A stretch of 38,347 bases of DNA from a virus (Duplodnaviria > Heunggongvirae > Uroviricota > Caudoviricetes), in IMG/VR virus record IMGVR_UViG_2718218452_000008, positions 1 through 38,347 of that record. One strand, given 5' to 3'. Of this stretch, positions 1,103-38,347 are shown one piece after another (within the stretch, counting starts at the first letter, position 1; each line of letters begins with the position of its first letter). The position numbers and the translations under genes are program-made. The notes under the pieces are model-generated. The model searched no databases. It worked only from the letters and a program-made list of their open reading frames with translations, and had not been told where the DNA came from.

Positions 1103-1182
1103 GTTGACCTCATTTCCCCTTAACGCCGGGGTAGCGGAACTGTTTGCTGAGAACACCGTGCGGTGTGTTGATGCAAATAAGA

Positions 1183-1196: not shown

Positions 1197-1268
1197 CATA
1201 TAGGTCAAGTAATTTTGTATGTTATGGCTAACATGATTGATGTGGTAAAAGATAACTCATTGATGATG

Positions 1269-1676: not shown

Positions 1677-1678
1677 AG

Positions 1679-1746: not shown

Positions 1747-1759
1747 AAAGGTGTTTTAA

Positions 1760-1990: not shown

Positions 1991-2495
1991 ACAGGCTCGT
2001 GAGGCTCTGGATGCCTGGATATGTCGACCAGGAATGACACAGGAGCAGGCGACGATATTAATCACTGAAGCATTCTGGGCTTTGAAAGAGCGCCCGAACA
2101 TCGATGTTCAGCGTGTCACAGATGAAGGTGGCGCGGTTGATCAGCGAGCGCTTGGCGTTAATCGAGTGAAGATATTCGAACGCTGGAAGGCTATCGACAC
2201 CAGGGATAAGCGTGAAAAGTTCACGGCGCTAGTGCCTGCGATTATGGAGGCTATCCGGATTAGTGATTTCAGGTTGTATCGTGAGATCAGTGATGGAAAA
2301 AGTATTACGTACATGATCGCCGGGTTAAATAAAGAATATGGCGATGTGGTGGAATCCGGACTGCTTTTTGCAGATCCTGCCGTTGTAGATCGTGAAACTG
2401 ACGAACTTATAGAAAAAGCAATTGCTTTCAAGCTTGCGTATCGACAGCAATACCAACAAAAAGCTGGATGGAATTATGAGTCTTCTTTTTGCTGA
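1974..2495 (+). CDS. YdaT-like protein (CII-analog family of Rac/Qin-type prophages)
   Basis: 173-aa ORF overlapping the dicC 3' end. The motif block VKIFERWKAIDTRDKREKFTALVPAIMEAI resembles K-12 YdaT as recalled. Confidence 0.6.
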   Translation: MKITPEQAREALDAWICRPGMTQEQATILITEAFWALKERPNIDVQRVTDEGGAVDQRALGVNRVKIFERWKAIDTRDKREKFTALVPAIMEAIRISDFRLYREISDGKSITYMIAGLNKEYGDVVESGLLFADPAVVDRETDELIEKAIAFKLAYRQQYQQKAGWNYESSFC

Positions 2496-3441: not shown

Positions 3442-3481
3442 GTGTTAATTTCTGGTCATGAGGTAATTTTCAGGAGGGCTT

Positions 3482-3904
3482 GTGGCAAAAGTTTTTACAC
3501 AAGAAGAGCGGGAAAAAATTAAAGGGCAGGTTGTTGAACTCGTACGCCGGAGTGGGCGTGAGACGTTACGGCAACTGGAAGTCAAGACAGGTGCGACAAG
3601 ATATCTGATGAGCGTTCTCGCAAGAGAGCTGGTTGCCAGCGGCGATGTATACAACTCTGGTTACGGGTTATTCCCGTCTGAACAGGCGCGTAAGGACTGG
3701 CAAAATGCCCGTAAAAAGCTCTCAAGGGCAAAGCTGAAGGAACCATCTGCGGTTGATCCGGACCTTATCTGGTCATTACCTGACGGAGAAATACGTCGCT
3801 ACGACAGGCGTCAGAACATAATCTGTCGCGAGTGCCGGAAGAGTGAAGTTATGCAGCGCATACTAGCATTCTATCAGGGAAATGCTCGATATTTATTGAA
3901 GTGA
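3482..3904 (+). CDS. Hypothetical protein (140 aa)
   Basis: GTG start 5 nt after a strong AGGAGGG Shine-Dalgarno; normal GC; no recognisable motif. Confidence 0.5.
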   Translation: MAKVFTQEEREKIKGQVVELVRRSGRETLRQLEVKTGATRYLMSVLARELVASGDVYNSGYGLFPSEQARKDWQNARKKLSRAKLKEPSAVDPDLIWSLPDGEIRRYDRRQNIICRECRKSEVMQRILAFYQGNARYLLK

Positions 3905-4156
3905 TGAGATTAAAGTTTATTAGTTCAGATATTGATTGGCTCTTTTGTGGAGTAGGGTAGAGTTAGTGTGTTTGTCTGCTTGGTGCCAGCAGCGGATATG
4001 TTTAACAACAGAAAGCATTCAGCATGGTTAGTGGATTTGCAAAGTGGATTAGGATTTGAGAAACTTTGATGAAGTTGTAAAGCTTGTTTCTATAAAAATA
4101 GAAATTTAACTAATAGTTAAACACACCTCCAGCTTCATTGAAAAGGATTATTAGCT

Positions 4157-5056
4157 ATGATTGATCCACTTATTAGAAACTTACAGAGTGATATTGCACT
4201 ACTCCAGCTTTATATCGCGCAACGCAAACAGGCAGGCTTTCATGACATGGAAAGAATAATTGAGTCATTGACCATCTTTATGTTTCGCGCGCTGAAAATG
4301 GGTGAACTGGTAAACATGAATCAGATTAAAGTTAATTTTCCCGCCATTGATTTAGCTGATAATAAAAACATGATAGCAGTTCAAGTTACTACGAATGCAA
4401 GTCCAGCAAAAATTAAAAAAACTATCGAATCTTTTGAGAAAATAAATGAAATAGGAGAGAGTCTGAAAGATAAATACTCTACTTTATATATTTTTGGTTT
4501 TTGTAAAGCCTCAAGATACCTAACTCCAAGTTATTGTAAAATAATCGACCCCAGCTATTTCGTGAATGAACTTTGCGATAAAGCAGATGAAGATATGGTC
4601 CAGGATATGATTGACGCCATTCGACGCCATCATGATTATACATCATTACATCCATGGAGTGATAAAGATTCACTCGAAATTATACTCAATATTATTAATC
4701 GCAATGCAATAAAACATCGGATGAGTTGCGAAGGCAGTCTGTCTGATATGCTCACTGGTTTAAAAGAAATTAATGAAGTAATTACAAAAGGAACAATTCA
4801 ACGTAAGCAACGTTCAAAATCGATATCTGACTTCAAAGATCAAAGCATGGTGAAATTTATGAGAGGTGTAATGGATGATTTGTCTGTTATTCAAGCCATA
4901 GTGAACAAATCTAAAGTTAACCAAGGTGATATGGTTTATATAAGCCATGAAGATATGATTAATATTGATAAATTAAAAGCTAAAATAGCAAGTGATTCAT
5001 CAGAGATTGCAAGGCTAAATAATATTGATATAACACTAAATGTTGTTGATTTATAA
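4157..5056 (+). CDS. Putative SMEK-domain protein (299 aa), low-GC accessory gene
   Basis: The N-terminal region (NFPAIDLADNKNMIAVQVTTNASPAKIKKTIESFEK...LYIFGFCKA) resembles the SMEK domain as I recall it. The gene is strongly AT-rich relative to flanking phage genes and has an AGGA Shine-Dalgarno. Confidence 0.6.
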   Translation: MIDPLIRNLQSDIALLQLYIAQRKQAGFHDMERIIESLTIFMFRALKMGELVNMNQIKVNFPAIDLADNKNMIAVQVTTNASPAKIKKTIESFEKINEIGESLKDKYSTLYIFGFCKASRYLTPSYCKIIDPSYFVNELCDKADEDMVQDMIDAIRRHHDYTSLHPWSDKDSLEIILNIINRNAIKHRMSCEGSLSDMLTGLKEINEVITKGTIQRKQRSKSISDFKDQSMVKFMRGVMDDLSVIQAIVNKSKVNQGDMVYISHEDMINIDKLKAKIASDSSEIARLNNIDITLNVVDL

Positions 5057-5370
5057 TTGTCGATTTAGCAAAACAGAGAATGCTTTGAAAGTTTCACCGA
5101 GAAATATTTATTGTGAACCTCCTTATTGTTTATCGACTTTTACTCTCCGCTCATTGCAGTACTGTCGGAGAAGGCTACTATGTACAAGAAGCAGCTAACA
5201 TAAGCGAGCATCACTATTGATATTAGGAAGAGTATATAAAAACTTCATGCTGAACCTTACAAAAGTAGGTAAACCGGCAATGGCCTAAGTGGCAGGGTCA
5301 TGTTGATCCGGCACTGCCGAGCTAATAATTAACAAGCAAATCACTCTTTCTAATAATTTGTTGAAATAAA

Positions 5371-6024
5371 CTAAATATGTATATGTTTACCAACAACCAC
5401 ATATGAACTACCTGCTTTGCTCCATGATTTTATTATTTCTAAATTATTATCTGAGCATATTTTACTTACAGTATCCACATCTAATAAACCATAGTAGAAA
5501 GCATTGCGAGAGTTTTGGTATATATACCCATGCAAATGTTTAATACCGCTCTCGTACCTCTTGAAATAAGAACTTTTGTATTGATTGACAATCAGTGCTT
5601 CACCATCACTCTTTAATAATTCTCTAATCGCACTGAGGACTTTGTGAATTGTGGATTCACATGGAATTGCGGAAAGCACGTTTGCGCAAAGTATGAAATC
5701 ATAATGATTTGTTATTTTATCTATATTTTCATAAGAAACAATATTAGCATTCTTATAGTTATTTATCACGTAATCTGGAATCGTGGTTTGTACACCTCTG
5801 ATAATTTGCACTCTTTCTAGTTGTCTTCTGGAATCTAAAAATGTCACAGTTTCAAATTTATTTACTAATTGTTCTGAATATCTAAGTTTTCCACATCCAA
5901 AATCAAGGGCATTGCCATTTTTATTAGTGCTTTCAATCTGTTTACAGAGATAGTTAGATGGCATAGTGTGCGGTTTCGCTGCATTTTCTGAACGTATGTT
6001 TATTCCATTTATTTTGTAATTCAA
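5371..6024 (-). CDS. Class I SAM-dependent methyltransferase (about 217 aa), not DNA-MTase-like
   Basis: Motif I ALDFGCGKLRYS, acidic end of beta-2 (VTFLDSRRQ), post-I ILCANVLSAIP, and LLKSDGEALIV. It lacks DPPY/NPPY and PCQ motifs. Probable TTG start at 6024 (GAGG 6 nt upstream) or 6030; starts 13 bp after the membrane-protein stop. Confidence 0.75.
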   Translation of the reverse strand: MNYKINGINIRSENAAKPHTMPSNYLCKQIESTNKNGNALDFGCGKLRYSEQLVNKFETVTFLDSRRQLERVQIIRGVQTTIPDYVINNYKNANIVSYENIDKITNHYDFILCANVLSAIPCESTIHKVLSAIRELLKSDGEALIVNQYKSSYFKRYESGIKHLHGYIYQNSRNAFYYGLLDVDTVSKICSDNNLEIIKSWSKAGSSYVVVGKHIHI

Positions 6025-6036
6025 AATCAACCTCGT

Positions 6037-6732
6037 TTAAAAAATATTGTTATTGTTAAAGAATTCTTTTATTTTGCTATCAGGTATTTGTCTTACTTGG
6101 CTTTCTGTTCTTGGTTTAACTGATGCTATGAAAATAAGGAAGTCAAATGCGACAAGAGAAATAATCCACAACCAAAGATTAATTAAAGAGCCAGTAACAG
6201 AGAATATATTTGTTAATTTGGCGATACTTATTATTAAAATAGTAACAAATGCGATTACTGTATGTTCAAAGAAAACCCAAAAGTAATAAACTTTGTTCCA
6301 GAAAAGTTCAACGTAATGTTTGTCTTTTAACTCTTTAACTTCTGGGTAATACAGTTTACTCATTACCTTGTGAGATTCATCAGTAGTTAATTTTCTCGTA
6401 ACGCCTGCAATTTTTGCTAATGGTTTAATAATTAAATGACTATCCCACATCTTCCTTATTCCAATAATTTTTGCTACATTATTATGTAGATCTAAAGCTC
6501 CACTAATTACTGACCAAAAAACTGAAGATGCAATTGGTAATATGCCAAAGGTTAATATCCATTTAATAAATTCCTCGTAGTCTTTAACGGGGGGGATATA
6601 CTTGGCATTAATGCCAACCAATGGCATGTAGCCATAAATGACTAATGATAGGTAAAATATAAATGTAGTAATAAAAGTCGCCTTATGGAGCATAGGCAAC
6701 ATTTCATTATAACTCTTTGGTGGTTCTAACAT
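6037..6732 (-). CDS. Predicted 4-TM integral membrane protein (231 aa), first gene of a two-gene operon with the methyltransferase
   Basis: Four long hydrophobic segments (ATFITTFIFYLSLVIYGYMPLVGI; FIKWILTFGILPIASSVFWSVISGAL; YYFWVFFEHTVIAFVTILIISIA; LINLWLWIISLVAFDFLIFIASV). ATG at 6732 has GGAG 7 nt upstream. Very AT-rich. Confidence 0.7.
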   Translation of the reverse strand: MLEPPKSYNEMLPMLHKATFITTFIFYLSLVIYGYMPLVGINAKYIPPVKDYEEFIKWILTFGILPIASSVFWSVISGALDLHNNVAKIIGIRKMWDSHLIIKPLAKIAGVTRKLTTDESHKVMSKLYYPEVKELKDKHYVELFWNKVYYFWVFFEHTVIAFVTILIISIAKLTNIFSVTGSLINLWLWIISLVAFDFLIFIASVKPRTESQVRQIPDSKIKEFFNNNNIF

Positions 6733-7173
6733 TTTACTCTCCAAACACTCAAAAAAAAGCTAATCTTCTATAATAACGAAATTCAGCTGGCACAATTAAA
6801 GATTAATTGCCACCAATTTCTTGATTTTATAATTTTATCTAAATGTTTTTGATTAATCTAGTCCTAAAAGAAACCTACTGCATAAATATTTATGCTGATG
6901 ACCCACTCCCTGTTCGTTAACACATAGCAACGTTAGTAATGCATCCTAAGTGATCAATATTTTTGCTAGCTTCATCTGCTCGCTCAAAGGGAACTATAAT
7001 GTTGGCTTGCGTGTGACTTGGCATGTTTAAAGAAGTGCTGGTGGTGACTGGTTGCTGTTTTCCATTTCCACAGAACAAAATCATAGAAACTATACCCAGT
7101 AGTTGTATTGAATCACTGACGAGACAGCCTCATATTTATCAGGACTGGTGTACGTCCAATACAGGAGGTTGTG

Positions 7174-7263
7174 GTGCTGGTTCTCAAATGTGCGCTGGCT
7201 ATTGCTGCTGTAATGGCAATTTATTGTCTTGCTGTTGTTCTTATGGATCACCTTTCTGATTGA
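7174..7263 (+). CDS. Candidate small hydrophobic peptide (29 aa)
   Basis: AGGAGG at 7163-7168 followed by a GTG start, encoding (M)VLVLKCALAIAAVMAIYCLAVVLMDHLSD, a single predicted TM helix. Not in the ORF track (under 60 aa). Confidence 0.3.
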   Translation: MLVLKCALAIAAVMAIYCLAVVLMDHLSD

Positions 7264-7474
7264 TTTCATATTGGCGAGGTAACGGTAGTTAAGTAGAATT
7301 GCTGCGGGTGCTTGAGGCTATCTGCCTCGGGCATCAACACCAAAGGCAGATAGAGAAAAGCCCCAGTTAACATTACGCGTCCGGCAAGACGCTTAACATT
7401 AATCTGAGGCCATATCTATGCTCTACACACGTAGGTTAGCCTCTTACGTGCCGAAAGGCAAGGAGAAGCAGGCT

Positions 7475-7630
7475 ATGAAGCAGCAAAAGGCGATGTTAAT
7501 CGCCCTGATCGTCATCTGTTTAACCGTCATAGTGACGGCACTGGTAACGAGGAAAGACCTCTGCGAGGTACGAATCCGAACCGGCCAGACGGAGGTCGCT
7601 GTCTTCACAGCTTACGAATCTGAGGAGTAA
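7475..7630 (+). CDS. hok: Hok/Gef-family type I toxin (51 aa)
   Basis: MKQQKAMLIALIVICLTVIVTALVTRKDLCEVRIRTGQTEVAVFTAYESEE is the Hok family signature and near-identical to K-12 HokD/RelF as recalled. The track ORF 7418-7630 extends in frame upstream. Confidence 0.85.
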   Translation: MKQQKAMLIALIVICLTVIVTALVTRKDLCEVRIRTGQTEVAVFTAYESEE

Positions 7631-7698
7631 GAGACCCGGCGGGGGAGAAATCCCTCGCCACCTCTGATGTGTCAGGCATTCTCAACGCACCCGCATTT

Positions 7699-7725
7699 AA
7701 CCCGCTTCGGCGGGTTTTTGTTTTT
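7699..7725 (+). terminator. Intrinsic terminator downstream of hok
   Basis: CCCGC-TTCG-GCGGG hairpin at 7701-7714 followed by TTTTTGTTTTT. Confidence 0.6.
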
Positions 7726-20375: not shown

Positions 20376-20565
20376 ACTGCAGGCGCTGCGTCAGGCGCGC
20401 CTTGATTTATTAACCGGTAAACGGGTGGTGTCTGTCCAGAAAGATGGTCGCAGAATTGAATATACGGCGGCTTCTCTGGATGAGCTTAACCGGGCGATCA
20501 ATGATGCGGAGTCGGTACTGGGGACAACCCGACGTCGCCGTCGTCCGCTGGGAGTGAGGTTATGA
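20359..20565 (+). CDS. W: Head-tail joining protein gpW
   Basis: LTGKRVVSVQKDGRRIEYTAASLDEL matches lambda W. Confidence 0.85.
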   Translation: MVTVAELQALRQARLDLLTGKRVVSVQKDGRRIEYTAASLDELNRAINDAESVLGTTRRRRRPLGVRL

Positions 20566-22154
20566 AACGAACGCCTGTCCTGATTGATGTGAACGGCGTT
20601 CCGCTTCGTGAGAGTCTCAGCTACAACGGGGGCGGCGCAGGATTTGGCGGGCAAATGGCGGAGTGGTTGCCACCGGCGCAGAGTGTCGATGCGGCCCTGC
20701 TGCCCGCGTTGCGTCTGGGGAATGCCCGGGCAGATGATCTGGTGCGCAATAACGGAATAGCGGCTAATGCGGTGGCCCTGCATAAGGATCACATTGTCGG
20801 GCATATGTTTCTGATCAGCTACCGTCCGAACTGGCGCTGGCTGGGGATGCGGGAGACCGCAGCAAAAAGCTTTGTCGATGAGGTGGAGGCGGCCTGGTCG
20901 GAATACGCAGAAGGGATGTCTGGCGAGATCGACGTGGAAGGAAAACGCACATTTACGGAGTTTATCCGTGAAGGTGTTGGCGTTCATGCGTTTAACGGCG
21001 AAATCTTTGTGCAGCCGGTCTGGGATACGGAAACCACGCAGTTATTCCGTACGCGTTTTAAAGCCGTGAGTCCGAAACGGGTGGACACGCCAGGACACGG
21101 TATGGGGAACCGTTTTCTGCGGGCCGGGGTGGAGGTCGATCGATATGGCCGTGCCGTTGCGTACCATATCTGTGAGGATGATTTTCCTCGCTCCGGGAGT
21201 GGACGATGGGAACGGATCCCGCGTGAACTTCCCACCGGGCGTCCGGCCATGCTGCATATTTTCGAGCCGGTGGAGGACGGGCAGACCCGTGGGGCTAATC
21301 AGTTTTACAGCGTCATGGAACGGCTGAAGATGCTGGATTCCCTGCAGGCAACACAGCTTCAGTCGGCCATTGTGAAAGCCATGTATGCAGCGACGATTGA
21401 AAGTGAACTTGATACCGAAAAGGCCTTTGAATATATCGCCGGCGCGCCACAGGAGCAGAAGGATAATCCGCTTATTAATATTCTGGAGAAGTTCTCCAGC
21501 TGGTATGACACGAATAACGTGACACTGGGCGGTGTCAAAATTCCGCACCTTTTCCCTGGTGATGATCTGAAACTACAGACTGCGCAGGATTCAGACAATG
21601 GATTTTCTGCGCTTGAACAGGCGCTGCTGCGGTATATCGCCGCCGGTCTTGGCGTTTCCTACGAACAGTTGTCCCGTGATTACTCGAAGGTCAGTTATTC
21701 AAGTGCCAGGGCCTCTGCCAATGAGTCGTGGCGCTATTTTATGGGGCGGCGAAAATTTATTGCGGCCCGGCTGGCCACGCAGATGTTTTCCTGCTGGCTG
21801 GAAGAGGCACTTCTTCGGGGGATTATCCGTCCGCCACGGGCGCGTTTTGATTTTTATCAGGCGCGATCAGCCTGGTCACGGGCAGAGTGGATTGGTGCCG
21901 GAAGAATGGCCATTGACGGGCTCAAGGAGGTTCAGGAATCGGTGATGCGCATTGAGGCCGGACTGAGCACGTATGAGAAAGAGCTGGCGCTGATGGGCGA
22001 GGATTATCAGGACATTTTCCGCCAGCAGGTCAGGGAATCTGCAGAGCGGCAAAAAGCCGGACTCTCACGTCCGGTGTGGATAGCGCAGGCGTATCAGCAG
22101 CAGATAGCGGAGAGTCGCAGGCCGGAAGAGGAGACAACACCCCGTGAGACGTAA
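20562..22154 (+). CDS. B: Portal protein gpB
   Basis: 530 aa; position and collinearity with lambda B. Confidence 0.85.
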   Translation: MKRTPVLIDVNGVPLRESLSYNGGGAGFGGQMAEWLPPAQSVDAALLPALRLGNARADDLVRNNGIAANAVALHKDHIVGHMFLISYRPNWRWLGMRETAAKSFVDEVEAAWSEYAEGMSGEIDVEGKRTFTEFIREGVGVHAFNGEIFVQPVWDTETTQLFRTRFKAVSPKRVDTPGHGMGNRFLRAGVEVDRYGRAVAYHICEDDFPRSGSGRWERIPRELPTGRPAMLHIFEPVEDGQTRGANQFYSVMERLKMLDSLQATQLQSAIVKAMYAATIESELDTEKAFEYIAGAPQEQKDNPLINILEKFSSWYDTNNVTLGGVKIPHLFPGDDLKLQTAQDSDNGFSALEQALLRYIAAGLGVSYEQLSRDYSKVSYSSARASANESWRYFMGRRKFIAARLATQMFSCWLEEALLRGIIRPPRARFDFYQARSAWSRAEWIGAGRMAIDGLKEVQESVMRIEAGLSTYEKELALMGEDYQDIFRQQVRESAERQKAGLSRPVWIAQAYQQQIAESRRPEEETTPRET

Positions 22155-23649
22155 TCTTTCACACATTATTGCCGCAGCATTCAATGAACCGCTGCTTCTG
22201 GAGCCCGCCTATGCGCGGGTTTTCTTTTGCGCGCTCGGGCGCGAGATGGGGGCAGCAAGTCTTTCGGTACCACAACAGCAGGTACAGTTTGATGCTCCCG
22301 GAATGCTGGCTGAAACGGACGAGTACATGGCCGGAGGTAAACGACCGGCCCGTGTTTACAGGGTGGTGAACGGTATTGCTGTACTGCCGGTGACCGGCAC
22401 GCTGGTGCACCGGCTGGGGGGTATGCGGCCATTTTCCGGAATGACAGGCTATGACGGTATTGTCGCCTGTCTTCAGCAGGCAATGGCGGATAGCCAGGTG
22501 CGGGGCGTACTGCTGGACATTGACAGTCCGGGCGGGCAGGCCGCCGGCGCGTTTGACTGCGCTGACATGATTTACCGCCTCCGTCAGCAGAAGCCGGTCT
22601 GGGCACTGTGCAATGACACGGCCTGTTCTGCAGCCATGCTGCTGGCGTCGGCCTGCTCCCGACGGCTGGTTACCCAGACATCCCGTATCGGCTCCATTGG
22701 CGTGATGATGAGCCATGTCAGCTATGCCGGTCATCTGGCGCAGGCCGGTGTGGATATCACGCTGATTTACTCAGGGACGCACAAGGTGGATGGCAATCAG
22801 TTTGAAGCCTTACCGGCAGAGGTTCGCCAGGACATGCAGCAGCGCATTGATGCGGCGCGCCGGATGTTTGCCGAAAAAGTGGCGATGTTTACCGGTCTGT
22901 CTGTTGATGCCGTCACGGGAACAGAGGCCGCCGTTTTTGAAGGTCAGTCCGGCATTGATGCCGGGCTGGCGGATGAATTAGTCAATGCGTCGGATGCCAT
23001 CAGTGTGATGGCCACGGCGCTGAACAGTAATGTCAGAGGAGGCACTATGCCGCAATTAACTGCAACGGAAGCCGCCGCGCAGGAGAACCAGCGAGTGATG
23101 GGGATCCTGACATGCCAGGAAGCGAAAGGACGTGAACAGCTTGCCACGATGCTGGCAGGACAACAGGGCATGAGCGTTGAACAGGCCCGGGCGATTCTGG
23201 CCGCGGCGGCACCACAGCAGCCGGTGGCATCCGCGCAGAGTGAAGCCGATCGCATTATGGCGTGTGAAGAAGCGAAAGGTCGTGAACAACTGGCGGCAAC
23301 GCTGGCGGCGATGCCGGAGATGACGGTGGAAAAAGCCCGCCCGATCCTGGCTGCTTCACCGCAGGCGGATGCCGGACCCTCACTCCGTGATCAGATCATG
23401 GCACTGGATGAGGCAAAAGGGGCTGAGGCGCAGGCTGAACAGCTGGCTGCCTGCCCGGGAATGACTGTGGAGAGCGCCCGGGCTGTGCTGGCTGCGGGAT
23501 CAGGTAAGGCAGAACCGGTCTCTGCATCCACAACCGCCATGTTTGAACGCATCATGGCGAACCATTCACCGGCAGCGGTACAGGGTGGCGTGCCACAGAC
23601 GTCAGCAGACGGTGATGCGGACGTGAAAATGCTCATGGCCATGCCATGA
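22144..23649 (+). CDS. C: Head maturation protease gpC (S49 family) with C-terminal Nu3-like scaffold region
   Basis: NEPLLLEPAYARVFFCAL, GIAVLPV.G.L and SIGVMMSH blocks as in lambda C. The C-terminal third carries three tandem copies of an EEAKGREQLA...ARAILAA unit. Confidence 0.85.
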   Translation: MRRNLSHIIAAAFNEPLLLEPAYARVFFCALGREMGAASLSVPQQQVQFDAPGMLAETDEYMAGGKRPARVYRVVNGIAVLPVTGTLVHRLGGMRPFSGMTGYDGIVACLQQAMADSQVRGVLLDIDSPGGQAAGAFDCADMIYRLRQQKPVWALCNDTACSAAMLLASACSRRLVTQTSRIGSIGVMMSHVSYAGHLAQAGVDITLIYSGTHKVDGNQFEALPAEVRQDMQQRIDAARRMFAEKVAMFTGLSVDAVTGTEAAVFEGQSGIDAGLADELVNASDAISVMATALNSNVRGGTMPQLTATEAAAQENQRVMGILTCQEAKGREQLATMLAGQQGMSVEQARAILAAAAPQQPVASAQSEADRIMACEEAKGREQLAATLAAMPEMTVEKARPILAASPQADAGPSLRDQIMALDEAKGAEAQAEQLAACPGMTVESARAVLAAGSGKAEPVSASTTAMFERIMANHSPAAVQGGVPQTSADGDADVKMLMAMP

Positions 23650-27646: not shown

Positions 27647-28078
27647 ATGTTTCTGAAAACCGAACAATTTGAATATAACGGTGTGTCCGTCACGCTTTCC
27701 GAGCTGTCTGCGCTGCAGCGTATCGAGCATCTTGCCCTGCTGAAACGACGGGCAGAACAGGCTGAAGCCAGCGGTAACCTGCAGGTGAGCGTGGAAGACC
27801 TTGTCAGAACCGGCGCGTTTCTGGTGGCGATGTCCCTGTGGCATAACCATCCACAGAAAACGGAGTCACCATCAATGAATGAGGCTGTGATGCAGATCGA
27901 ACAGGAGGTGCTCACCACCTGGCCTGCTGATGCCATTGCCCGGGCGGAAGACGTGGTGTTGCGTCTGTCCGGGATGAGCGGGGCTGTTCATGCGGATACT
28001 GACAGCACCGAAGTGGCGAAAAATAACGCGCTGACTGATGATGATTTTTCTGCGGGAAAGTCTTCGACGGCGAGCTGA
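27647..28078 (+). CDS. G: Tail assembly chaperone gpG
   Basis: MFLKTEQFEYNGVSVTLSELSALQRIEHLALLKRRAEQAE... matches lambda G. Confidence 0.85.
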   Translation: MFLKTEQFEYNGVSVTLSELSALQRIEHLALLKRRAEQAEASGNLQVSVEDLVRTGAFLVAMSLWHNHPQKTESPSMNEAVMQIEQEVLTTWPADAIARAEDVVLRLSGMSGAVHADTDSTEVAKNNALTDDDFSAGKSSTAS

Positions 28079-28518
28079 ATTTTGCCCTCAGACTGGCGCG
28101 TGAGATGGGGAGGCCTGACTGGCGCGCCATGCTTGCCGGGATGACATCCACCGAATATGCCGACTGGCGACATTTTTACCGTACGCATTATTTTCTCGAT
28201 ACCCAACTGGATATGCATTTTTCCGGGCTGACGTACGCCGTACTCAGCCTGTTTTTTTGCGATCCGGATATGCATCCCTCTGATTTCAGTCTGCTTGCCC
28301 CCCGGCGTGAGGAAGCGCAGACGGAGATGCCGGATGAGGAAAAAATGCTGATGCAGAAAGCGGCAGGACTTGCCGGAGGCGTCCGGTTTGGTGGGGACGG
28401 AGGGCGTGAGATTTTATCGTCTGCGGATGTGGCGGATGTCAGCGAGGATGATGTCGCATTAATGATGGCTTCAGCGGGGATTTCCGGAGGTGTGAGATAT
28501 GTCCCAGCCGGTTGGTGA
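27647..28518 (+). CDS. GT: gpGT fusion produced by programmed -1 ribosomal frameshift
   Basis: Slippery heptamer G GGA AAG at 28054-28060 near the 3' end of G. The -1 frame continues as LRLAREMGRPDWRAMLAGMTSTEYADW..., homologous to lambda T, ending at 28518. Confidence 0.75.
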
Positions 28519-30264
28519 TCTTGTTATTGACCTGAGTCTGGATGCGGTCCGTTTCGATGAGCAGATGAGCCGGGTAAGGCGTCATTTTTCCGGACTGGAG
28601 ACTGACGCCAGAAAAACCGCCGGTGTTGTTGAGCAGAACCTGAGTCGTCCAGGCGCTGGCTGCACAAAAAGCCGGGATTTCCGTCGGGCAGTATAAAGCG
28701 GCCATGCGAACCCTGCCCGCACAGTTTACGGATATCGCCACGCAGCTTGCCGGTGGTCAGAATCCCTGGCTGATCCTGCTGCAACAGGGCGGTCAGGTGA
28801 AGGACTCCTTCGGCGGGATGATCCCCATGTTCAGGGGGCTTGCCGGTGCGATCACCCTGCCGATGGTCGGGGTCACCTCGCTGGCGGTGGCGACAGGTGC
28901 GCTGGCGTACGCCTGGTACCAGGGGGATTCCACGCTTTCAGCGTTTAATAAAACCCTGGTTCTTTCCGGTAATCAGTCCGGACTGACTGCCGATCGCATG
29001 CTGACGCTCTCCAGAGCCGGACAGGCCGCAGGGCTGACGTTTAACCAGGCGAGTGAGTCACTGGCAGCCCTGGTGAATGCCGGTGTGCGTGGTGGTGAAC
29101 AGTTTGATGCCATCAACCAGAGTGTCGCGCGTTTTGCTTCTGCATCCGGTGTGGAGGTGGACAAGGTTGCAGAGGCTTTTGGAAAACTGACCACCGACCC
29201 GACGTCGGGACTGATGGCGATGGCGCGCCAGTTCCGTAACGTGACGGCAGAGCAGATTGCGTATGTTGCACAGCTGCAGCGTTCCGGAGACGAGGCCGGG
29301 GCATTGCAGGCGGCGAACGATATCGCCACGAAAGGCTTTGATGAGCAGACCCGTCGCCTGAAAGAAAACATGGGAACACTGGAGACCTGGGCGGATAAAA
29401 CAGGGAAGGCATTCAAATCGATGTGGGATGCCATTCTGGATATCGGTCGTCCTGAGTCCTCAGCGGATATGCTCGCCAGTGCGCAGAAGGCATTTGATGA
29501 GGCGGATAAAAAATGGCAGTGGTACCAGAGCCGGAGCCAGCGCCGCGGTAAAACCTCTTCTTTCCGGGCCAACCTTCAGGGCGCATGGAATGACCGGGAA
29601 AATGCCCGGCTGGGGCGAGTGGGCAGAAAGTGCGACGGACAGTTTTTCGCAGGTTAAAAGCGTGGCCACGCAGACCTTTGACGGTATTGCACAGAATATG
29701 GCAGCGATGCTGACCGGCAGTGAGCAGAACTGGCGCAGCTTCACCCGTTCCGTGCTGTCCATGATGACAGAAATTCTGCTTAAGCAGGCAATGGTGGGGA
29801 TTGTCGGGAGTATCGGTAGCGCCATTGGCGGGGCTGTTGGTGGCGGCGCATCCGCATCAGGCGGTACAGCCATTCAGGCAGCTGCGGCGAAATTCCATTT
29901 TGCGACCGGAGGATTTACGGGAACCGGCGGCAAATATGAGCCAGCGGGGATTGTTCACCGTGGTGAGTTTGTCTTCACGAAGGAGGCAACCAGCCGGATT
30001 GGCGTGGGGAATCTTTACCGGCTTATGCGCGGCTATGCCACCGGCGGTTATGTCGGTACACCGGGCAGTCTGGCGGACAGCCGGTCGCAGGCGTCCGGGA
30101 AGTTTGAGCAGAATAACCATGTGGTGATTAACAACGACGGCACGAACGGGCAGATTGGACCACAGGCGCTGAAGGCTGTGTATGACATGGCCCGCAAGGG
30201 TGCCCGTGATGAAATTCAGGCACAGATGCGTGATGGTGGCTTGTTCTCCGGAGGTGGACGATGA
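28499..30264 (+). pseudogene. H: Tape measure protein gpH, disrupted (frameshift plus internal out-of-frame deletion)
   Basis: The N-terminus (MSQPVGDLVIDLSLDAVRFDEQM...), middle (LPAQFTDIATQLAGGQNPWLILLQQGG...) and C-terminus (...SATDSFSQVKSVATQTFDGIAQNMAAMLTGSEQNWRSF...GGLFSGGGR) of lambda H lie in three different frames. There is an extra C near 28653 and a junction near 29610-29630; total span is 1766 bp against about 2560 bp for lambda H. Confidence 0.65.
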
Positions 30265-30590
30265 AAACCTTCCGCTGGAAAGTGAAACCCGGGATGGATG
30301 TGACATCGGCTCCTTCCGTCAGGGAGGTGCGCTTTGGTGATGGCTATTCCCAGCGTGCGCCTGCCGGGCTGAATGCTGACCTGAAAACGTACAGCGTGAC
30401 GCTTTCTGTCTCCCGCGAGGAGGCCAGGGCGCTGGAGTCGTTTCTGGCTGAGCACGGGGGCTGGAAAGCCTTTCTGTGGACGCCGCCTTATGGCTGGCGG
30501 CAGATCAGGGTGACCTGCGCAAAATGGACATCGCGGGTCAGTATGTTACGTGTTGAGTTCAGCGCAGAGTTTAAACAGGTGGTGAACTGA
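30261..30590 (+). CDS. M: Tail protein gpM
   Basis: MKTFRWKVKPGMDV...VRFGDGYSQRAPAGLNA matches lambda M. Confidence 0.9.
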   Translation: MKTFRWKVKPGMDVTSAPSVREVRFGDGYSQRAPAGLNADLKTYSVTLSVSREEARALESFLAEHGGWKAFLWTPPYGWRQIRVTCAKWTSRVSMLRVEFSAEFKQVVN

Positions 30591-31288
30591 TGCAGGATAT
30601 CCGGCAGGAAACACTGAATGAATGCACCCGTGCGGAGCAGTCGGCCAGCGTGGTGCTCTGGGAAATCGATCTGACAGAGGTTGGTGGAGAACGTTATTTT
30701 TTCTGTAATGAGCAGAACGAAAAAGGTGAGCCGGTCACCTGGCAGGGGCGACAGTATCAGGCATACCCCATTCAGGGGAGCGGTTTTGAACTGAATGGCA
30801 AAGGCACCAGTACGCGGCCCACGCTGGCAGTCTCTAACCTGTACGGCATGGTCACCGGTATGGTGGAAGATATGCAGAGTCTGGTCGGCGGAACGGTAGT
30901 CCGGCGTAAGGTTTACGCCCGTTTTCTGGATGCGGTGAACTTCGTCAGCGGAAACAGCAACGCCGATCCGGAGCAGGAGGTGATCAGCCGCTGGCGCATC
31001 GAGCAGTGCAGCGAACTGAGCGCAGTCAGTGCCTCTTTTGTACTGGCCACGCCGACGGAAACGGATGGCGCTGTTTTTCCGGGACGTACCATGCTGGCCA
31101 ACACCTGCACCTGGACCTATCGCGGTGATGAGTGCGGTTATAACGGTCCGGCTGTCGCGGATGAATATGACCAGCCGACGTCCGATATAACGAAGGATAA
31201 ATGCAGCAAATGCCTGAGCGGCTGTAAGTTCCGCAATAACGTCGGCAACTTTGGCGGTTTCCTTTCCATTAACAAACTTTCGCAGTAA
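30590..31288 (+). CDS. L: Tail protein gpL
   Basis: 232 aa, same length as lambda L; collinear. Confidence 0.85.
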   Translation: MQDIRQETLNECTRAEQSASVVLWEIDLTEVGGERYFFCNEQNEKGEPVTWQGRQYQAYPIQGSGFELNGKGTSTRPTLAVSNLYGMVTGMVEDMQSLVGGTVVRRKVYARFLDAVNFVSGNSNADPEQEVISRWRIEQCSELSAVSASFVLATPTETDGAVFPGRTMLANTCTWTYRGDECGYNGPAVADEYDQPTSDITKDKCSKCLSGCKFRNNVGNFGGFLSINKLSQ

Positions 31289-31292
31289 TCCC

Positions 31293-32036
31293 ATGACAGA
31301 GACAGAATCAGCGATTCTGGCGCACGCCCGGCGATGTGCGCCAGCGGAGTCGTGCGGCTTCGTGGTGAGAACGCCGGAGGGGGAAAGCTATTTTCCCTGC
31401 GTGAATATTTCCGGTGAGCCGGAGGATTATTTCCGGATGGCTCCGGAGGACTGGCTGCAGGCAGAAATGCAGGGTGAGATTGTGGCGCTGGTCCACAGCC
31501 ACCCCAGTGGTCTGCCCTGGCTGAGTGAGGCTGACCGGCGGCTGCAGGTGCAGAGTGATTTGCCGTGGTGGCTGGTCTGCCGGGGGGCGATTCATAAGTT
31601 CCGCTGTGTGCCGCATCTCACCGGGCGGCGCTTTGAGCACGGGGTGACGGACTGTTACGCGCTGTTCCGGGACGCTTATCATCTGGCGGGGACTGAACTG
31701 CCGGATTTTCACCGGGAGGATGACTGGTGGCGTCACGGTCAGAATCTCTATCTTGACAATATGGAGGCGACGGGTTTTTACCGTGTCGCACTGACAGAGG
31801 CGCAGCCTGGCGATGTGCTGCTGTGCTGTTTTGGTTCATCGGTGCCGAATCATGCCGCCATTTACTGTGGTGACGGCGAGCTGCTGCACCATATTCCTGA
31901 ACAACTGAGCAAACGAGAGAGGTATACCGACAAATGGCAGCGACGCACACACTCCCTCTGGCGTCACCGGGCATGGCGCGCATCTGCCTTTACGGGGATT
32001 TGCAACGATTTGGCCGCCGCATCGACCTTCGTGTGA
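31293..32036 (+). CDS. K: Tail assembly protein gpK (NlpC/P60-JAB-like)
   Basis: AHARRCAPAESCGFVV...HSHP matches lambda K. ATG at 31293 just after the L stop. Confidence 0.85.
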   Translation: MTETESAILAHARRCAPAESCGFVVRTPEGESYFPCVNISGEPEDYFRMAPEDWLQAEMQGEIVALVHSHPSGLPWLSEADRRLQVQSDLPWWLVCRGAIHKFRCVPHLTGRRFEHGVTDCYALFRDAYHLAGTELPDFHREDDWWRHGQNLYLDNMEATGFYRVALTEAQPGDVLLCCFGSSVPNHAAIYCGDGELLHHIPEQLSKRERYTDKWQRRTHSLWRHRAWRASAFTGICNDLAAASTFV

Positions 32037-32575
32037 AAACGGGGGCTGAAGCCATCCGCGCACTGGCCACACAGCTCCCGGTGTTTCGTCAGAAACTGAG
32101 CGACGGCTGGTATCAGGTACGGATTGCCGGGCGTGATGCAGGCGAAACCGAATTATCATCCCGTCTTAATGAGCCGCTGGCAAATGGTGCAGTGATCCAC
32201 ATCGTGCCGCGTCTTGCGGGAGCAAAAAGTGGCGGTGTGTTTCAGGCGGTGCTGGGTGCGGCGTTGATTGCTACGGCAATCTGGATGCCGGGGATCAGTA
32301 TCGCTTTCAGTGACATTCTCTTTTCAATGGGTGCGGCGATGACGCTTGGCGGTGTTGCACAGATGCTGGCACCGAAAGCGAGTACCGCAACAACGACCAG
32401 CACGGATAACGGTAAGCAGAACACGTATTTCTCATCACTGGATAACATGGTTGCCCAGGGCAATGTTCTGCCTGTTCTGTACGGTGAAATGCGTGTGGGG
32501 TCACGGGTAATTTCGCAGGAAATCAGCACGGCAGACGAAGGGGATGGTGGTGAAATCGTGGTGATTGGTCGCTGA
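31934..32575 (+). CDS. I: Tail assembly protein gpI
   Basis: MAATHTLPLASPGMARICLYGDLQRFGRRIDLRVKTGAEAIRALATQLP matches lambda I. Confidence 0.85.
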   Translation: MAATHTLPLASPGMARICLYGDLQRFGRRIDLRVKTGAEAIRALATQLPVFRQKLSDGWYQVRIAGRDAGETELSSRLNEPLANGAVIHIVPRLAGAKSGGVFQAVLGAALIATAIWMPGISIAFSDILFSMGAAMTLGGVAQMLAPKASTATTTSTDNGKQNTYFSSLDNMVAQGNVLPVLYGEMRVGSRVISQEISTADEGDGGEIVVIGR

Positions 32576-32635
32576 TGCAGAATGTTTTATGTGAAACCGC
32601 CTCCGGGCGGTTTTGTCGTTTATGGAGCGTGAGGA

Positions 32636-35600
32636 ATGGGTAAAGGCAGCAGTAAGGGGCATACCCCGCGCGAAGCGAAGGACAACCTGAAGTCCACGCA
32701 GCTGCTGAGTGTGATCGATGCCATCAGCGAAGGGCCGATAGAAGGTCCGGTGGATGGATTAAAAAGCGTGCTGCTGAACAGTACGCCGGTGCTGGACAGT
32801 GAGGAGAATACCAATATCTCCGGCGTCACGGTGGTGTTCCGGTCAGGTGAGCAGGAGCAGACACCGCCGGAGGGGTTTGAATCCTCCGGCTCCGAGACGG
32901 TGCTGGGTACGGAAGTGAAATATGACACGCCGATAACCCGGACCATCACGTCGGCAAACATTGACCGTCTGCGCCTGACCTTCGGTGTGCAGGCACTGGT
33001 GGAAACCACCTCAAAGGGGGACAGGAATCCGTCGGAAGTCCGCCTGCTGGTTCAGATACAGCGTAATGGTGGCTGGGTGACGGAAAAAGACATCACCATT
33101 AAGGGCAAAACCACCTCGCAGTATCTGGCCTCGGTGGTGGTGGATAACCTGCCGCCGCGCCCGTTTAATATCCGGATGCGCAGGATGACGCCGGACAGCA
33201 CCACAGACCAGCTGCAGAACAAAACGCTCTGGTCGTCATACACCGAAATCATCGATGTGAAACAGGGCTACCCGAACACGGCACTGGTCGGCGTACAGGT
33301 GGATTCGGAGCAGTTCGGCAGCCAGCAGGTGAGCCGTAATTATCATCTGCGCGGACGCATTCTGCAGGTGCCGTCGAATTACGACCCGGAAAAACGCACA
33401 TACAGCGGTATCTGGGACGGAACGCTTAAACCGGCATACAGCAACAACATAGCCTGGTGTCTGTGGGATATGCTGACCCATCCGCGTTATGGCATGGGGA
33501 AACGTCTTGGTGCAGCGGATGTGGATAAATGGGCGCTGTATGTCATCGGCCAGTACTGCGACCAGTCGGTGCCGGACGGCTCTGGTGGCACGGAGCCGCG
33601 CATCACCTGTAATGCGTACCTGACCACACAGCGCAAGGCGTGGGATGTGCTCAGTGATTTCTGCTCGGCGATGCGCTGTATGCCGGTATGGAACGGGCAG
33701 ACGCTGACGTTCGTGCAGGACCGACCGTCGGATAAGGTGTGGACCTATAACCGCAGTAATGTGGTGATGCCGGATGATGGCGCGCCGTTCCGCTACAGCT
33801 TCAGCGCCCTGAAGGACCGCCATAATGCCGTTGAGGTGAACTGGATTGACCCGAATAACGGCTGGGAGACGGCGACAGAGCTTGTGGAGGACACGCAGGC
33901 CATTGCCCGTTACGGTCGTAACGTCACGAAGATGGATGCCTTTGGCTGTACCAGCCGGGGGCAGGCACACCGCGCCGGGCTGTGGCTGATTAAAACAGAA
34001 CTGCTGGAAACGCAGACCGTGGACTTCAGCGTGGGTGCCGAAGGGCTTCGCCATGTGCCGGGCGATGTCATTGAAATCTGTGATGATGACTATGCCGGTA
34101 TCAGCACCGGCGGGCGCGTGCTGGCGGTAAACAGCCAGACCCGGACGCTGACGCTCGACCGTGAAATCACGCTGCCATCCTCCGGTACCACGCTGATAAG
34201 CCTGGTTGACGGAAGTGGCAATCCGATCAGCGTGGAGGTTCAGTCCGTCACCGACGGCGTGAAGGTGAAAGTGAGCCGTGTTCCTGACGGTGTTGCTGAA
34301 TACAGCGTGTGGGGGCTGAAGTTGCCGACGTTGCGCCAGCGCCTGTTCCGCTGTGTGAGTATCCGTGAGAACGATGACGGCACGTATGCTATCACCGCCG
34401 TGCAGCATGTACCGGAAAAAGAAGCCATCGTGGATAACGGGGCGCACTTTGACGGCGACCAGAGCGGCACGGTGAATGGTGTCACGCCGCCAGCAGTGCA
34501 GCACCTGACTGCCGAAGTCACCGCAGACAGCGGGGAGTATCAGGTACTGGCCCGCTGGGATACGCCGAAGGTGGTGAAGGGCGTGAGTTTCATGCTTCGC
34601 CTGACCGTGGCCGCGGATGACGGCAGTGAGCGGCTGGTCAGCACAGCCCGGACGGCGGAAACCACATACCGCTTCACACAACTGGCGCCGGGGAACTACA
34701 GGCTGACAGTCCGGGCAGTAAATGCGTGGGGGCAGCAGGGCGATCCGGCATCGGTATCGTTCAGGATTGCCGCACCGGCAGCGCCGTCACAGATTGAGCT
34801 GACGCCGGGCTATTTTCAGATAACCGCCACGCCGCATCTTGCGGTTTATGACCCGACGGTACAGTTTGAGTTCTGGTTCTCGGAAACGCGGATTACCGAT
34901 ATCAGGCAGGTTGAAACCACAGCCCGCTATCTTGGCACGGCGCTGTACTGGATAGCCGCCAGTATCAATATCAAACCGGACCATGATTATTATTTTTACA
35001 TCCGCAGTGTGAACACCGTTGGCAAATCGGCATTTGTGGAGGCTGTTGGCCAGCCGAGTGATGATGCATCCGGCTATCTGGATTTTTTCAAAGGCCAGAT
35101 AACCGAATCCCATCTCGGCAAGGAGTTGCTGGAAAAAGTCGACCTGACGGAGGATAACGCCAGCAGACTGGAGGAGTTTTCGAAAGAGTGGAAGGACGCC
35201 AACGATAAGTGGAATGCCATGTGGGGCGTCAAAATTGAGCAGACCAAAGACGGCAAACATTATGTCGCGGGTATTGGCCTCAGCATGGAGGACGCGGAGG
35301 AAGGCAAACTGAGCCAGTTTCTGGTTGCCGCCAATCGTATCGCGTTTATTGACCCGGCAAACGGGAATGAAACGCCGATGTTTGTGGCGCAGGGCAACCA
35401 GATATTCATGAACGACGTGTTCCTGAAGCGCCTGACGGCTCCCACCATTACCAGCGGCGGTAATCCTCCGGCATTTTCCCTGACACCGGACGGAAAGCTG
35501 ACCGCTAAAAATGCAGATATCAGTGGCAGTGTGAATGCGAACGCCGGGACGCTCAACAATGTCACAATTAATGAGAACTGTCAGATTAAGGGGAAACTGT

Positions 35601-36031
35601 CAGCCAACCAGATTGAAGGCGATATAGTCAAAACAGTGGGTAAGGCTTTTCCGCGGGACTCCCGGGCACCGGAGCGGTGGCCATCAGGGACCATTACCGT
35701 CAGGGTTTATGACGATCAGCCGTTTGACCGGCAGATTGTTATTCCGGCGGTGGCATTCAGTGGCGCTAAGCATGAGAGAGAGCATACTGATATTTACTCC
35801 TCATGCCGTCTGATAGTGCGGAAAAACGGTGCTGAAATTTATAACCGTACCGCGCTGGATAATACGCTGATTTACAGTGGCGTTATTGATATGCCTGCCG
35901 GTCACGGTCACATGACGCTGGAGTTTTCGGTATCAGCATGGCTAGTGAATAACTGGTATCCCACAGCAAGTATCAGCGATTTGCTGGTTGTGGTGATGAA
36001 GAAAGCCACCGCAGGCATCAGTATCAGCTGA
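32636..36031 (+). CDS. J: Tail tip / host specificity protein gpJ (1131 aa)
   Basis: Length and position as lambda J (1132 aa); apparently intact. Confidence 0.9.
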
Positions 36032-36098
36032 ATTTTATAACCCATATACGGGCGCCAGAAATGGCGCCTTTTTTATTGCAGAAAAGCGAGAGGTAATT

Positions 36099-36698
36099 AT
36101 GCGTAAACTTTATGCCGCCATTTTGTCCGCAGCCATTTGTCTGGCCGTATCCGGTGCGCCTGCATGGGCGTCTGAACATCAGTCCACGCTGAGCGCGGGG
36201 TATCTTCATGTCTCGACGAACGTTCCTGGCAGCGATGAACTGAACGGGATTAACGTGAAATACCGTTATGAGTTTACGGACACACTGGGGATGGTGACGT
36301 CGTTCAGCTATGCAGGAGACAAGAATCGCCAGCTTACCCGTTACAGCGATACCCGCTGGCATGAAGATTCCGTGCGTAACCGCTGGTTCAGCGTGATGGT
36401 GGGGCCGTCTGTGCGCGTGAATGAATGGTTCAGCGCGTATGCGATGGCGGGTATGGCTTACAGCCGTGTGTCGACTTTCTCCGGGGATTATCTCCGCGTA
36501 ACTGACAACAAGGGGAAAACGCACGACGTGCTGACCGGAAGTGATGACGGTCGCCACAGCAACACGTCTCTGGCGTGGGGAGCTGGCGTGCAGTTTAACC
36601 CGACCGAATCCGTGGCCATTGATATTGCTTATGAAGGCTCCGGCAGTGGCGACTGGCGCACTGACGGTTTCATCGTGGGTGTCGGTTATAAGTTCTGA
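36099..36698 (+). CDS. lom: Lom-family outer membrane protein (Ail/PagC/OmpX beta-barrel family)
   Basis: Signal peptide and the C-terminal [23 protein letters not shown], which matches the lambda Lom C-terminus. Confidence 0.85.
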
Positions 36699-36724
36699 TT
36701 AGCCAGGTAACACAGTGTTATGAC

Positions 36725-36752
36725 AGCCCGCCGGTTCAGGCGGGCTTTTTTG
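36725..36752 (+). terminator. Intrinsic terminator downstream of lom
   Basis: AGCCCGCC-GGTTCAG-GCGGGCT hairpin followed by TTTTTTG. Confidence 0.7.
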
Positions 36753-36762
36753 TGGGGTGAAT

Positions 36763-38076
36763 ATGGCAGTAAAGATTTCAGGTGTACTGAAAGACGGCAC
36801 AGGAAAACCGGTACAGAACTGCACAATCCAGCTGAAAGCAAAACGTAACAGCACCACGGTGGTGGTGAACACGCTGGCCTCAGAAAATCCGGATGAAGCC
36901 GGGCGTTACAGCATGGACGTTGAGTACGGTCAGTACAGCGTTATTCTGTTGGTGGAAGGATTCCCGCCGTCACATGCCGGGACCATCACCGTGTATGAAG
37001 ATTCTCAACCGGGGACGCTGAATGATTTTCTCGGTGCCATGTCGGAGGATGACGTCCGGCCGGAGGCACTGCGTCGTTTTGAACTGATGGTGGAAGAAGC
37101 GGCGCGTCACGCTGAGGAGGCGAAGAAGAATGCCGGAGAGGCGGAGACGTCCGCGAGGAATGCTGGCATATCAGCCAGTCAGGCAGAAGAGAGCGCTGCA
37201 AATGCTGACACTTCAGCAGGGGATGCATCGGAGTCAGCCCGGCAGGCGGCAGAAAGTGCAGCCTCAGCAAAGCAGTCAGAGGATGCGTCCTCGTCCTCGG
37301 CCTCTGCGGCCGCTCAAAAAGCCAGTGAGTCATTACAAAGTGCAACAGATGCTGAGTTGTCAAAAAAGATGGCAGAAAGTGCAGCCGGTAATGCAGCCAG
37401 GGATGCAACGACCGCAACAGAAAAAGCCCGGGAGTCAGCAGAAAGCGCACAGTCAGCGGAACAAAGCAGGATAGCGGCGGAAGAGGCCGTAAACCGAATC
37501 CCCACCGTGGTGGGACCTCCCGGGCCAAAGGGGGAACAGGGGCCCGCGGGTCCTCAGGGGCCGAAGGGTGATAAGGGAGAGCGCGGTGACACCGGCCCTG
37601 TCGGGGCAACCGGCGAACGGGGACCGGCAGGTGATGCTGGTCCGGCAGGCCCGCAGGGGCCGAAAGGTGACAGGGGAGAGCGGGGAGAGACCGGTCTGAC
37701 GGGAAATGCAGGTCCACAGGGTCCAAAGGGAGATACCGGTGCGGCAGGCCCGGCAGGCCCACAGGGACCGAAAGGAGAAACAGGTGCGGCTGGCCCGGTG
37801 GGGGCAACCGGACCTCAGGGACCGAAGGGCGACCCGGGGGAGACACAAATCCGTTTTCGTCTGGGGCCGGCGAGCATTATTGAGACAAACAGCAATGGCT
37901 GGTTCCCGGATACAGATGGCGCACTCATCACCGGACTGACCTTTCTTGACCCCAAAGATGCCACACAGGTTCAGGGGCTGTTTCAGCATTTGCAGGTCAG
38001 GTTTGGTGACGGGCCGTGGCAGGATGTTAAGGGGCTGAATGAAGTGGGCAGTGATACAGGCAGAACAGGAGAATGA
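36763..38076 (+). CDS. stf: Side tail fiber protein (Stf-like) with collagen-like G-X-Y repeats
   Basis: N-terminus MAVKISGVLKDGTGKPVQNCTIQLKA... matches the lambda Stf N-terminus. An acidic Ala/Ser-rich coiled region precedes about 35 G-X-Y triplets (GPPGPKGEQGPAGPQGPKGDKGERGD...). Confidence 0.85.
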   Translation: MAVKISGVLKDGTGKPVQNCTIQLKAKRNSTTVVVNTLASENPDEAGRYSMDVEYGQYSVILLVEGFPPSHAGTITVYEDSQPGTLNDFLGAMSEDDVRPEALRRFELMVEEAARHAEEAKKNAGEAETSARNAGISASQAEESAANADTSAGDASESARQAAESAASAKQSEDASSSSASAAAQKASESLQSATDAELSKKMAESAAGNAARDATTATEKARESAESAQSAEQSRIAAEEAVNRIPTVVGPPGPKGEQGPAGPQGPKGDKGERGDTGPVGATGERGPAGDAGPAGPQGPKGDRGERGETGLTGNAGPQGPKGDTGAAGPAGPQGPKGETGAAGPVGATGPQGPKGDPGETQIRFRLGPASIIETNSNGWFPDTDGALITGLTFLDPKDATQVQGLFQHLQVRFGDGPWQDVKGLNEVGSDTGRTGE

Positions 38077-38077
38077 C

Positions 38078-38347
38078 ATGAATATACTAAAAAAACTTAT
38101 GCAGCGTCTGTGTGGTTGCGGAAAGCATGATGGCCGTGAACACGTGCAGTCGCTTACAGCACAACTGCGACTGGGACCGGCAGACATTCTGGAGTCAGAT
38201 GAGAATGGCATTATTCCGGAGCAGGACAGGGTAATCACACAGGTGGTGATACTGGATGCGGATAAAAAGCAGATACAGTGCGTGGTAAGACCGCTGCAAA
38301 TTCTGCGTGCTGACGGGACGTGGGAAAATATTGGCGGGATGAAGTAA
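38078..38347 (+). CDS. Small protein (89 aa) with a module homologous to the Stf C-terminal domain
   Basis: ATG 1 nt after the stf stop with AGGAG upstream. LRLGPADILESDENGIIPEQDRVITQVVILDADKKQIQ...LQILRADGTWENI parallels IRFRLGPASIIETNSNGWFPDTDGALITGLTFLDPKDATQVQ...LQVRFGDGPWQDV at the Stf C-terminus. Confidence 0.5.
   Translation: MNILKKLMQRLCGCGKHDGREHVQSLTAQLRLGPADILESDENGIIPEQDRVITQVVILDADKKQIQCVVRPLQILRADGTWENIGGMK

Follow-up and report, generated by a model that had tools for sequence, protein, structure and literature searches.

A shared 815-nt deletion in the tape-measure gene of a mosaic lambdoid prophage sequence and its predicted consequence for tail assembly

Results

Layout of the H locus

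The window analyzed here is the whole 38,347-nt stretch of Caudoviricetes DNA held as IMG/VR record IMGVR_UViG_2718218452_000008. Its tail region contains a locus homologous to the lambda tape-measure gene H, which lies 3′ of the G/G-T chaperone genes and 5′ of M-L-K-I-J, as judged from ORF order and annotated relatives (Table 1). The original prediction that homology to H between 28499 and 30264 is divided among three frames was borne out both by the ORFs and by tblastn with lambda gpH (853 aa), in which residues 1-58 aligned to frame 2 (E = 3e-23), residues 51-365 to frame 3 (E = 4e-173), and residues 625-853 to frame 1 (E = 2e-121). The ORFs of the locus, which encode 65, 317, and 278 aa, occupy three different frames and overlap or abut one another, the last of them extending over 29428-30264 when read from its first possible ATG at 29428. 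Stop codons lie inside the locus at 28694-28696 and 29655-29657. The three retained segments are 70-93% identical in amino-acid sequence to lambda gpH, and Pfam places TMP_2 in the middle ORF (2.7e-64) and Tape_meas_lam_C in the last (4.2e-19), the same two domains that are found in an intact 859-aa H orthologue. The locus thus has the N- and C-terminal domain homology and the tail-operon position of the gpH family and lacks the single open frame of ~850-860 codons. Because the retained segments are in three frames and residues 373-641 are missing, no full-length H product is possible. Judged by its sequence, the locus reads as a pseudogene of the gpH family and not as a functional member.

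Table 1. Features of the H locus and its surroundings, and the prophage type matched by each part of the window
Feature	Position	Strand	Details
Window segment, type A	1 to ~19.0 kb		C7 100% identical over 1-14000; three SNPs in direct comparison
Window segment, type B	19.0 to 23.2 kb		
Window segment, type A	~23.3 to 28.65 kb (to 28648)		zero mismatches
G and G-T tail assembly chaperone genes	27647..28518	+	upstream of H, both intact
Pseudogene of lambda-type tail tape-measure protein H	28499..30264	+	1766 nt, compared with 2580 nt in intact orthologues
H fragment 1, 65 aa	28499..28696	+	H residues 1-50, then 15 out-of-frame residues and a TAA stop
One extra base (T or C; placement ambiguous)	28648..28649	+	window reads GAGTCGTCCAGG
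H fragment 2, 317 aa	28704..29657	+	H residues 69-372 (TMP_2), then 13 out-of-frame residues (RVGRKCDGQFFAG) and a stop
Window segment, type B	29.5 kb to end		essentially identical to JB2 type B prophage
Deletion junction	29595..29616	+	sole surviving copy of the 11-nt repeat CCGGCTGGGGC at 29606-29616
H fragment 3	29602..30264	+	frame of H residues 642-859: Tape_meas_lam_C domain and C-terminal tip-binding helix
Tail-tip genes M, L, K, I, J	30261..36031	+	open, full length; near-identical to the JB2 prophage beside ybhB/bio (deleted H)

The original prediction that all other head and tail genes are intact holds at the level of ORFs. All 22 of them, from Nu1 to the tail-fiber C-terminal gene (Nu1, A, W, B, C, D, E, FI, FII, Z, U, V, G, T, M, L, K, I, J, lom, and two tail-fiber genes) are open with the lengths annotated in relatives, including the full-length head and packaging genes from Nu1 to FII. 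For G-T, an intact lambda-type slippery site, G GGA AAG, occupies 28054-28060, with its frame relation checked on the sequence, and across holin, lysozyme, and Rz the window is identical to the region annotated in strain C7. The RefSeq record of C7 contains frameshifts in the portal gene (4129656-4131248) and in J (5287602-5290999), the window counterparts of which (20562-22154 and 32636-36031) are open; single-base differences from C7 fall at window positions 21045 and 21708 in portal and 33781 in J. These C7 frameshifts are either real decay in that strain or indel errors in its assembly.

Elsewhere in the window, around 10776-11025 and 11440-12100, three tRNA genes lie 3′ of Q, two of them Arg-TCG and Arg-TCT and the other with a CAT anticodon, which is called Met by ARAGORN and Ile by PGAP. 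Next comes a TerB-family ORF, interrupted by a stop codon in the identical C7 annotation, and 3′ of it DUF3927 and then a 616-aa NanS-p-type SASA esterase. Stx phages typically have this late-region layout, but the window lacks stx genes. In the early region, a gene for a SMEK-domain protein (4157-5056, plus strand) is followed on the minus strand (5371-6744) by two genes, one for a class I SAM methyltransferase and one hypothetical, all named from the identical C7 annotation, and the block as a whole (4157-6744) may be an accessory or defense-like insert. A relative of the early region, L043 (GCA_045258215.1, contig JBJHSH010000001.1, locus 1-21851), is located next to yodB/zinT and has genes for YdaT, DUF977, SMEK, methyltransferase, hok, DUF968, RusA, Q, and NanS-p. 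No lysis or morphogenesis genes are called between its esterase gene and its tail-fiber, nleB, and nleF genes, and that block appears to have been deleted.

Origin of the 815-nt deletion

Alignment of the window to the intact 2580-nt H orthologue of strain EC-107 (98% identical) revealed both a 1-bp insertion, at 28648/28649, and an out-of-frame internal deletion, as had been predicted, and the anticipated shortfall of ~0.8 kb amounts to a net 814 nt. The deletion removes 815 nt (H nt 1107-1921, residues 373-641). It had been expected near 29610-29630, and its exact junction, 29605/29606, lies just to the left of that range. The sequence across the junction is GGGAAAATGCCCGGCTGGGGCGAGTGGGCAG. 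The longest direct repeat in intact H is 27 nt in length and imperfect, with only its last 11 nt, CCGGCTGGGGC, perfect, and the spacing of its two copies from start to start is exactly 815 nt. This correspondence between deletion length and repeat spacing points to slipped mispairing or illegitimate recombination, either of which could have joined the short direct-repeat copies within H. Because the two copies occupy different reading frames in the intact gene, the deletion product is out of frame, and with 815 not divisible by 3, translation ends 13 codons past residue 372. The C-terminal third of the protein (residues 642-859), which includes the tip-anchoring helix of the tape measure, is thereby placed in another frame. 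An ATG in frame with these residues is created directly at the junction (29602-29604), and gene callers consequently report a 220-aa ORF containing only Tape_meas_lam_C in many assemblies.

Over 1765 nt, a single SNP separates the deleted allele from the intact one of EC-107, which makes the deletion young in sequence terms. Since the direct repeat is present in the aligned intact alleles, the same 815-nt deletion could conceivably have recurred independently.

Distribution of the deleted allele

A 120-nt probe across the deletion junction was run against 5,426 complete E. coli genomes and matched at full length in three of them: C7, from a cow (H pseudogene RG29_RS28510), OkiPb01675, from bovine feces in Japan (ACZ5SP_RS04265), and JB2, from a rabbit farm in China (ACNHKV_RS19950). 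All three carry the PGAP/RefSeq label of a 1765-nt pseudogene, "phage tail tape measure protein, frameshifted". In each genome, the prophage with the deleted H adjoins ybhB/bioA (bio operon), the chromosomal site used by lambda for integration, and contains the same cargo of nleB2, partial nleC, nleH, cif, and nleA. The junction is present in one IMG/VR contig as well, and the 220-aa ORF that starts at it is indexed in 37 blocks of a public gene collection; every draft NCBI contig fetched among the matches to this ORF (10/10) was confirmed to contain the junction. The junction was absent from phage records (50,697 phage genomes), and it was not found in GTDB representative genomes or JGI metagenomes, where E. 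coli diversity is barely sampled.

The 815-nt deletion is a pre-existing allele common to many assemblies and is not private to the window genome. The description of the inactivation as recent therefore stands with respect to the single SNP that separates deleted and intact alleles, and not as an event peculiar to this element. Within the window, most 500-nt bins between 29483 and the end of the tail genes have zero mismatches to the deleted-H prophage, and the ~8.8 kb from 29500 to 38347 is essentially identical to the JB2 prophage carrying the deletion. The original prediction had also allowed for assembly error at the deletion site. The same junction in three independently closed genomes, one IMG/VR contig, and ten draft contigs, which come from different laboratories, argues that the deletion is not an assembly error. 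For the same reason, we consider it very improbable that both lesions are sequencing or assembly errors and that the real H is intact. The absence of the +1 base from every other sequence searched would fit such a double error, but a direct repeat clearly accounts for the biological origin of the deletion, which is embedded in the ~8.8 kb that matches the JB2 prophage.

Mosaic structure of the window and the extra base

Strains C7 and JB2 each have two prophages relevant to the window, which differ in type. Type A has DicA/DicC-type immunity and an intact H and, as seen in JB2, is on the zinT/yodB side of the chromosome, whereas type B, which is found beside ybhB/bio, is the one with the deleted H. 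Relatives were found by look-ups with the terminase, protein C, and the NanS-p esterase. The window alternates between the two types (Table 1), with switch points near 19007, at 22458-23214, at 28648, and at 29402-29483. Within H, alleles are A-type to 28648, B-type at 28649 and 28838, and B-type again from 29483; between these, a 9-SNP patch at 29180-29402 matches JB2 prophage A and AMSHJX01 and neither of the C7 prophages compared. In J, the C-terminal part of the window allele likewise matches JB2 and not C7. The window has no chromosomal flank, integrase, attachment site, or cargo region and ends at a tail-fiber gene.

Many of the short-read contigs with the deletion begin inside H, at window-equivalent positions 29056-29103 or 29406-29421, indicating that assemblers treat the 5′ half of H as a multi-copy repeat and leave it unresolved. 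Such breaks are a practical caution for any call made in H.

The extra base had been attributed to a C-run near 28653, a placement that does not hold: the base is at 28648/28649, where there is no C-run, and consists of a single C that has become CC or of a T added beside the C. A-type alleles read GAGTCGTCAGG at this site and B-type alleles GAGCCGCCAGG, so that the polymorphic position is T in A and C in B; the window has T and then C, and the extra base sits exactly where the A-type SNPs end. The form with the extra base is GTCGTCCAGG, and the form expected if it is a consensus error is GTCGTCAGG. Save for this base, the 5′ 240 nt of H are A-type and identical to 48 complete genomes. The variant with the extra base is absent from the 5,426 complete E. 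coli genomes, an exact 24-mer containing it has no match in IMG/VR, GTDB representative genomes, or JGI metagenomes, and none of the deletion carriers that cover the site has it. Nor are the exact 65-aa, 317-aa, and 278-aa products of the locus on record.

Among the public sequences searched, the extra base thus occurs in the window alone and could reflect either an error in the consensus or a genuine second hit. As to its source, it may be an artifact of reads from two paralogous copies, a scar of exchange, or a duplicated C in a dead gene. That the two parental alleles of a single SNP stand in tandem just where a conversion tract would end suggests a further possibility, namely that two co-resident lambdoid prophages underwent error-prone template switching or gene conversion and that the base is a genuine scar of this. 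We regard this as doubtful; if true, the window would have caught very recent and repeated inter-prophage exchange within one cell, in which a dead tape-measure allele is spreading from one prophage into another. We also asked whether the lesions could compensate for each other, and this is ruled out, as the net change of −814 (+1 and −815) is not divisible by 3. H is dead from the deletion alone, whichever origin the extra base has.

The alternation of types along the window reflects either very recent exchange between prophages or a chimeric assembly induced by repeats. If the latter, the window would combine two co-resident prophages, of which only the one at ybhB/bio has the deleted H, the donor of the early and head genes would have an intact H, and the extra base would be a consensus artifact at the join. 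The near absence of mismatches between successive window segments and C7 prophage A or B (the latter also present in OkiPb01675 and JB2) is what such a chimera would produce, but mosaicism is normal for lambdoid prophages, and at least one of the switches exists in nature, since two independent assemblies, an ENA metagenome contig and a Logan contig, contain the gene for the mosaic protein C (22144-23649) at 99.2-99.7% nucleotide identity, the Logan contig being the closest match (99.7%). A chimeric origin also gains from the intact 2580-nt H of the A-type prophage in both C7 and JB2, and from the position of the extra base, with its T followed by C, at the exact end of the A-type SNPs, together with the privacy of the +1 variant; the B-type tract that begins there, however, is defined by just two informative sites (28649 and 28838). 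The contig breaks described above, which lie close to the last switch of the window from A-like to B sequence (29402-29483), also fit a chimeric origin. A simple chimera of the two C7 prophages is ruled out by the 29180-29402 patch and the C-terminal part of J, with their matches to JB2 and AMSHJX01. Beyond the +1 base, moreover, the window has zero other gene-disrupting indels, compared with the portal and J frameshifts of the C7 record. Taken together, these observations leave a chimeric window a possible if unlikely explanation, and one that would change the owner of the dead H and not the existence of the dead allele.

Discussion

We consider it highly probable that H in the window is a pseudogene created by a repeat-mediated 815-nt deletion, that it was inherited with the tail module of a ybhB/bio-type prophage, and that the element consequently makes no tails of its own. 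In the sequence of events that we propose, the deletion would have arisen outside the window genome, as an allele of an effector-carrying prophage beside ybhB/bio. The type B tail module (from ~29483 to the end) would have been joined to head and early modules of type A, the two types being co-resident in related strains. The extra base near codon 50, which is predicted to truncate the product earlier, would be either a later second hit in a gene that was already dead or a consensus error.

The tape measure of lambda is required for formation of the tail initiator on the tip complex. In the lambda tail tip, gpH residues 818-842 form a coiled coil in the lumen, where they are held by gpI (PMC10721106). 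An H product terminating at residue 50 or, as in the sister genomes, at residue 372 lacks the C-terminal helix held by the tip and is therefore expected to yield no tails. With no tape measure there would be no tail initiator, and the element itself would make no tails. Filled heads could still form, as the head, packaging, lysis, and remaining tail genes are open, and tails could be supplied by co-resident lambdoid prophages. In both C7 and JB2, H of the A-type prophage is intact (2580 nt), with ~80-100% protein identity over the three retained segments, and the presence of an intact, near-identical H in co-resident prophages makes rescue in trans plausible. We infer both the loss of tail assembly and its rescue in this manner. 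The original prediction of a tail-defective prophage is supported to that extent, and in practice the defect would be softened by co-resident lambdoid prophages with an intact H.

The loss of only the central residues 373-641, with retention of N-terminal TMP_2 and C-terminal Tape_meas_lam_C, raises the question of whether the shortened H could be a functional short-ruler variant that specifies a shorter tail. The reading frame makes this extremely improbable, since a loss of 815 nt shifts the frame and the extra base, which brings the net change to −814, leaves it unrestored. The 52-nt overlap between the second and third fragments (29606-29657) contains one slippery-looking sequence, G TTT TTC, but a shift there would be −1 and into the wrong frame. 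PGAP calls a pseudogene in all three complete genomes, and the junction is in no isolated phage. Functional phages with an intact H of this shortened size would have spoken against the original prediction, and a search of 50,697 phage records found no intact short H in isolated phages and no phage that spans the junction; the annotated carriers are frameshifted pseudogenes in 3/3 cases.

Inactivation of H by the repeat-mediated deletion is ordinary prophage decay, a known kind of event, and RefSeq genomes with the main lesion already carry a pseudogene label for H. For annotation of the window, H (28499-30264) should be marked as a pseudogene, and completeness tools should not score the element as intact. 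The shared 815-nt deletion can also serve as a marker for one effector-carrying prophage lineage, which has been sampled from cattle, a rabbit farm, and other sources. Two principles that are already known are illustrated here: short direct repeats in long repetitive genes cause inactivating deletions, and co-resident lambdoid prophages swap modules.

Comparison with known systems places the locus among lambda-type tape measures. Lambda gpH and the prophage orthologues WP_075362656.1 and WP_000082490.1 occupy the same slot between G-T and M, and the G-T frameshift site is conserved. Across its full length, an intact prophage orthologue shares 81% identity with lambda gpH, whereas H of the window has no residues 373-641 and has its remaining segments in three frames. 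Amber mutations in lambda H abolish tails, and heads are still made. In-frame deletions in lambda H, studied by Katsura and Hendrix, reportedly give a shorter tail; the window H has also lost the central ruler, but out of frame, and is thus expected to be null and not to shorten the tail. A direct counterpart is the deleted H of C7, OkiPb01675, and JB2, which has the identical junction and is followed by the same M, L, K, I, and J. Unlike these prophages, the window has the extra base at 28648/28649, is A-type in H upstream of 29402 and in genes D to T, and takes its early and lysis region from a different prophage type. The pool of defective lambdoid prophages in O157 Sakai offers a biological parallel. 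Induction, packaging, and transfer of its members with the help of co-resident prophages were shown experimentally (Asadulghani et al. 2009, PMC2669165); that pool and the window element have in common lesions in morphogenesis genes, co-resident prophages with near-identical structural genes, and the exchange of segments between them.
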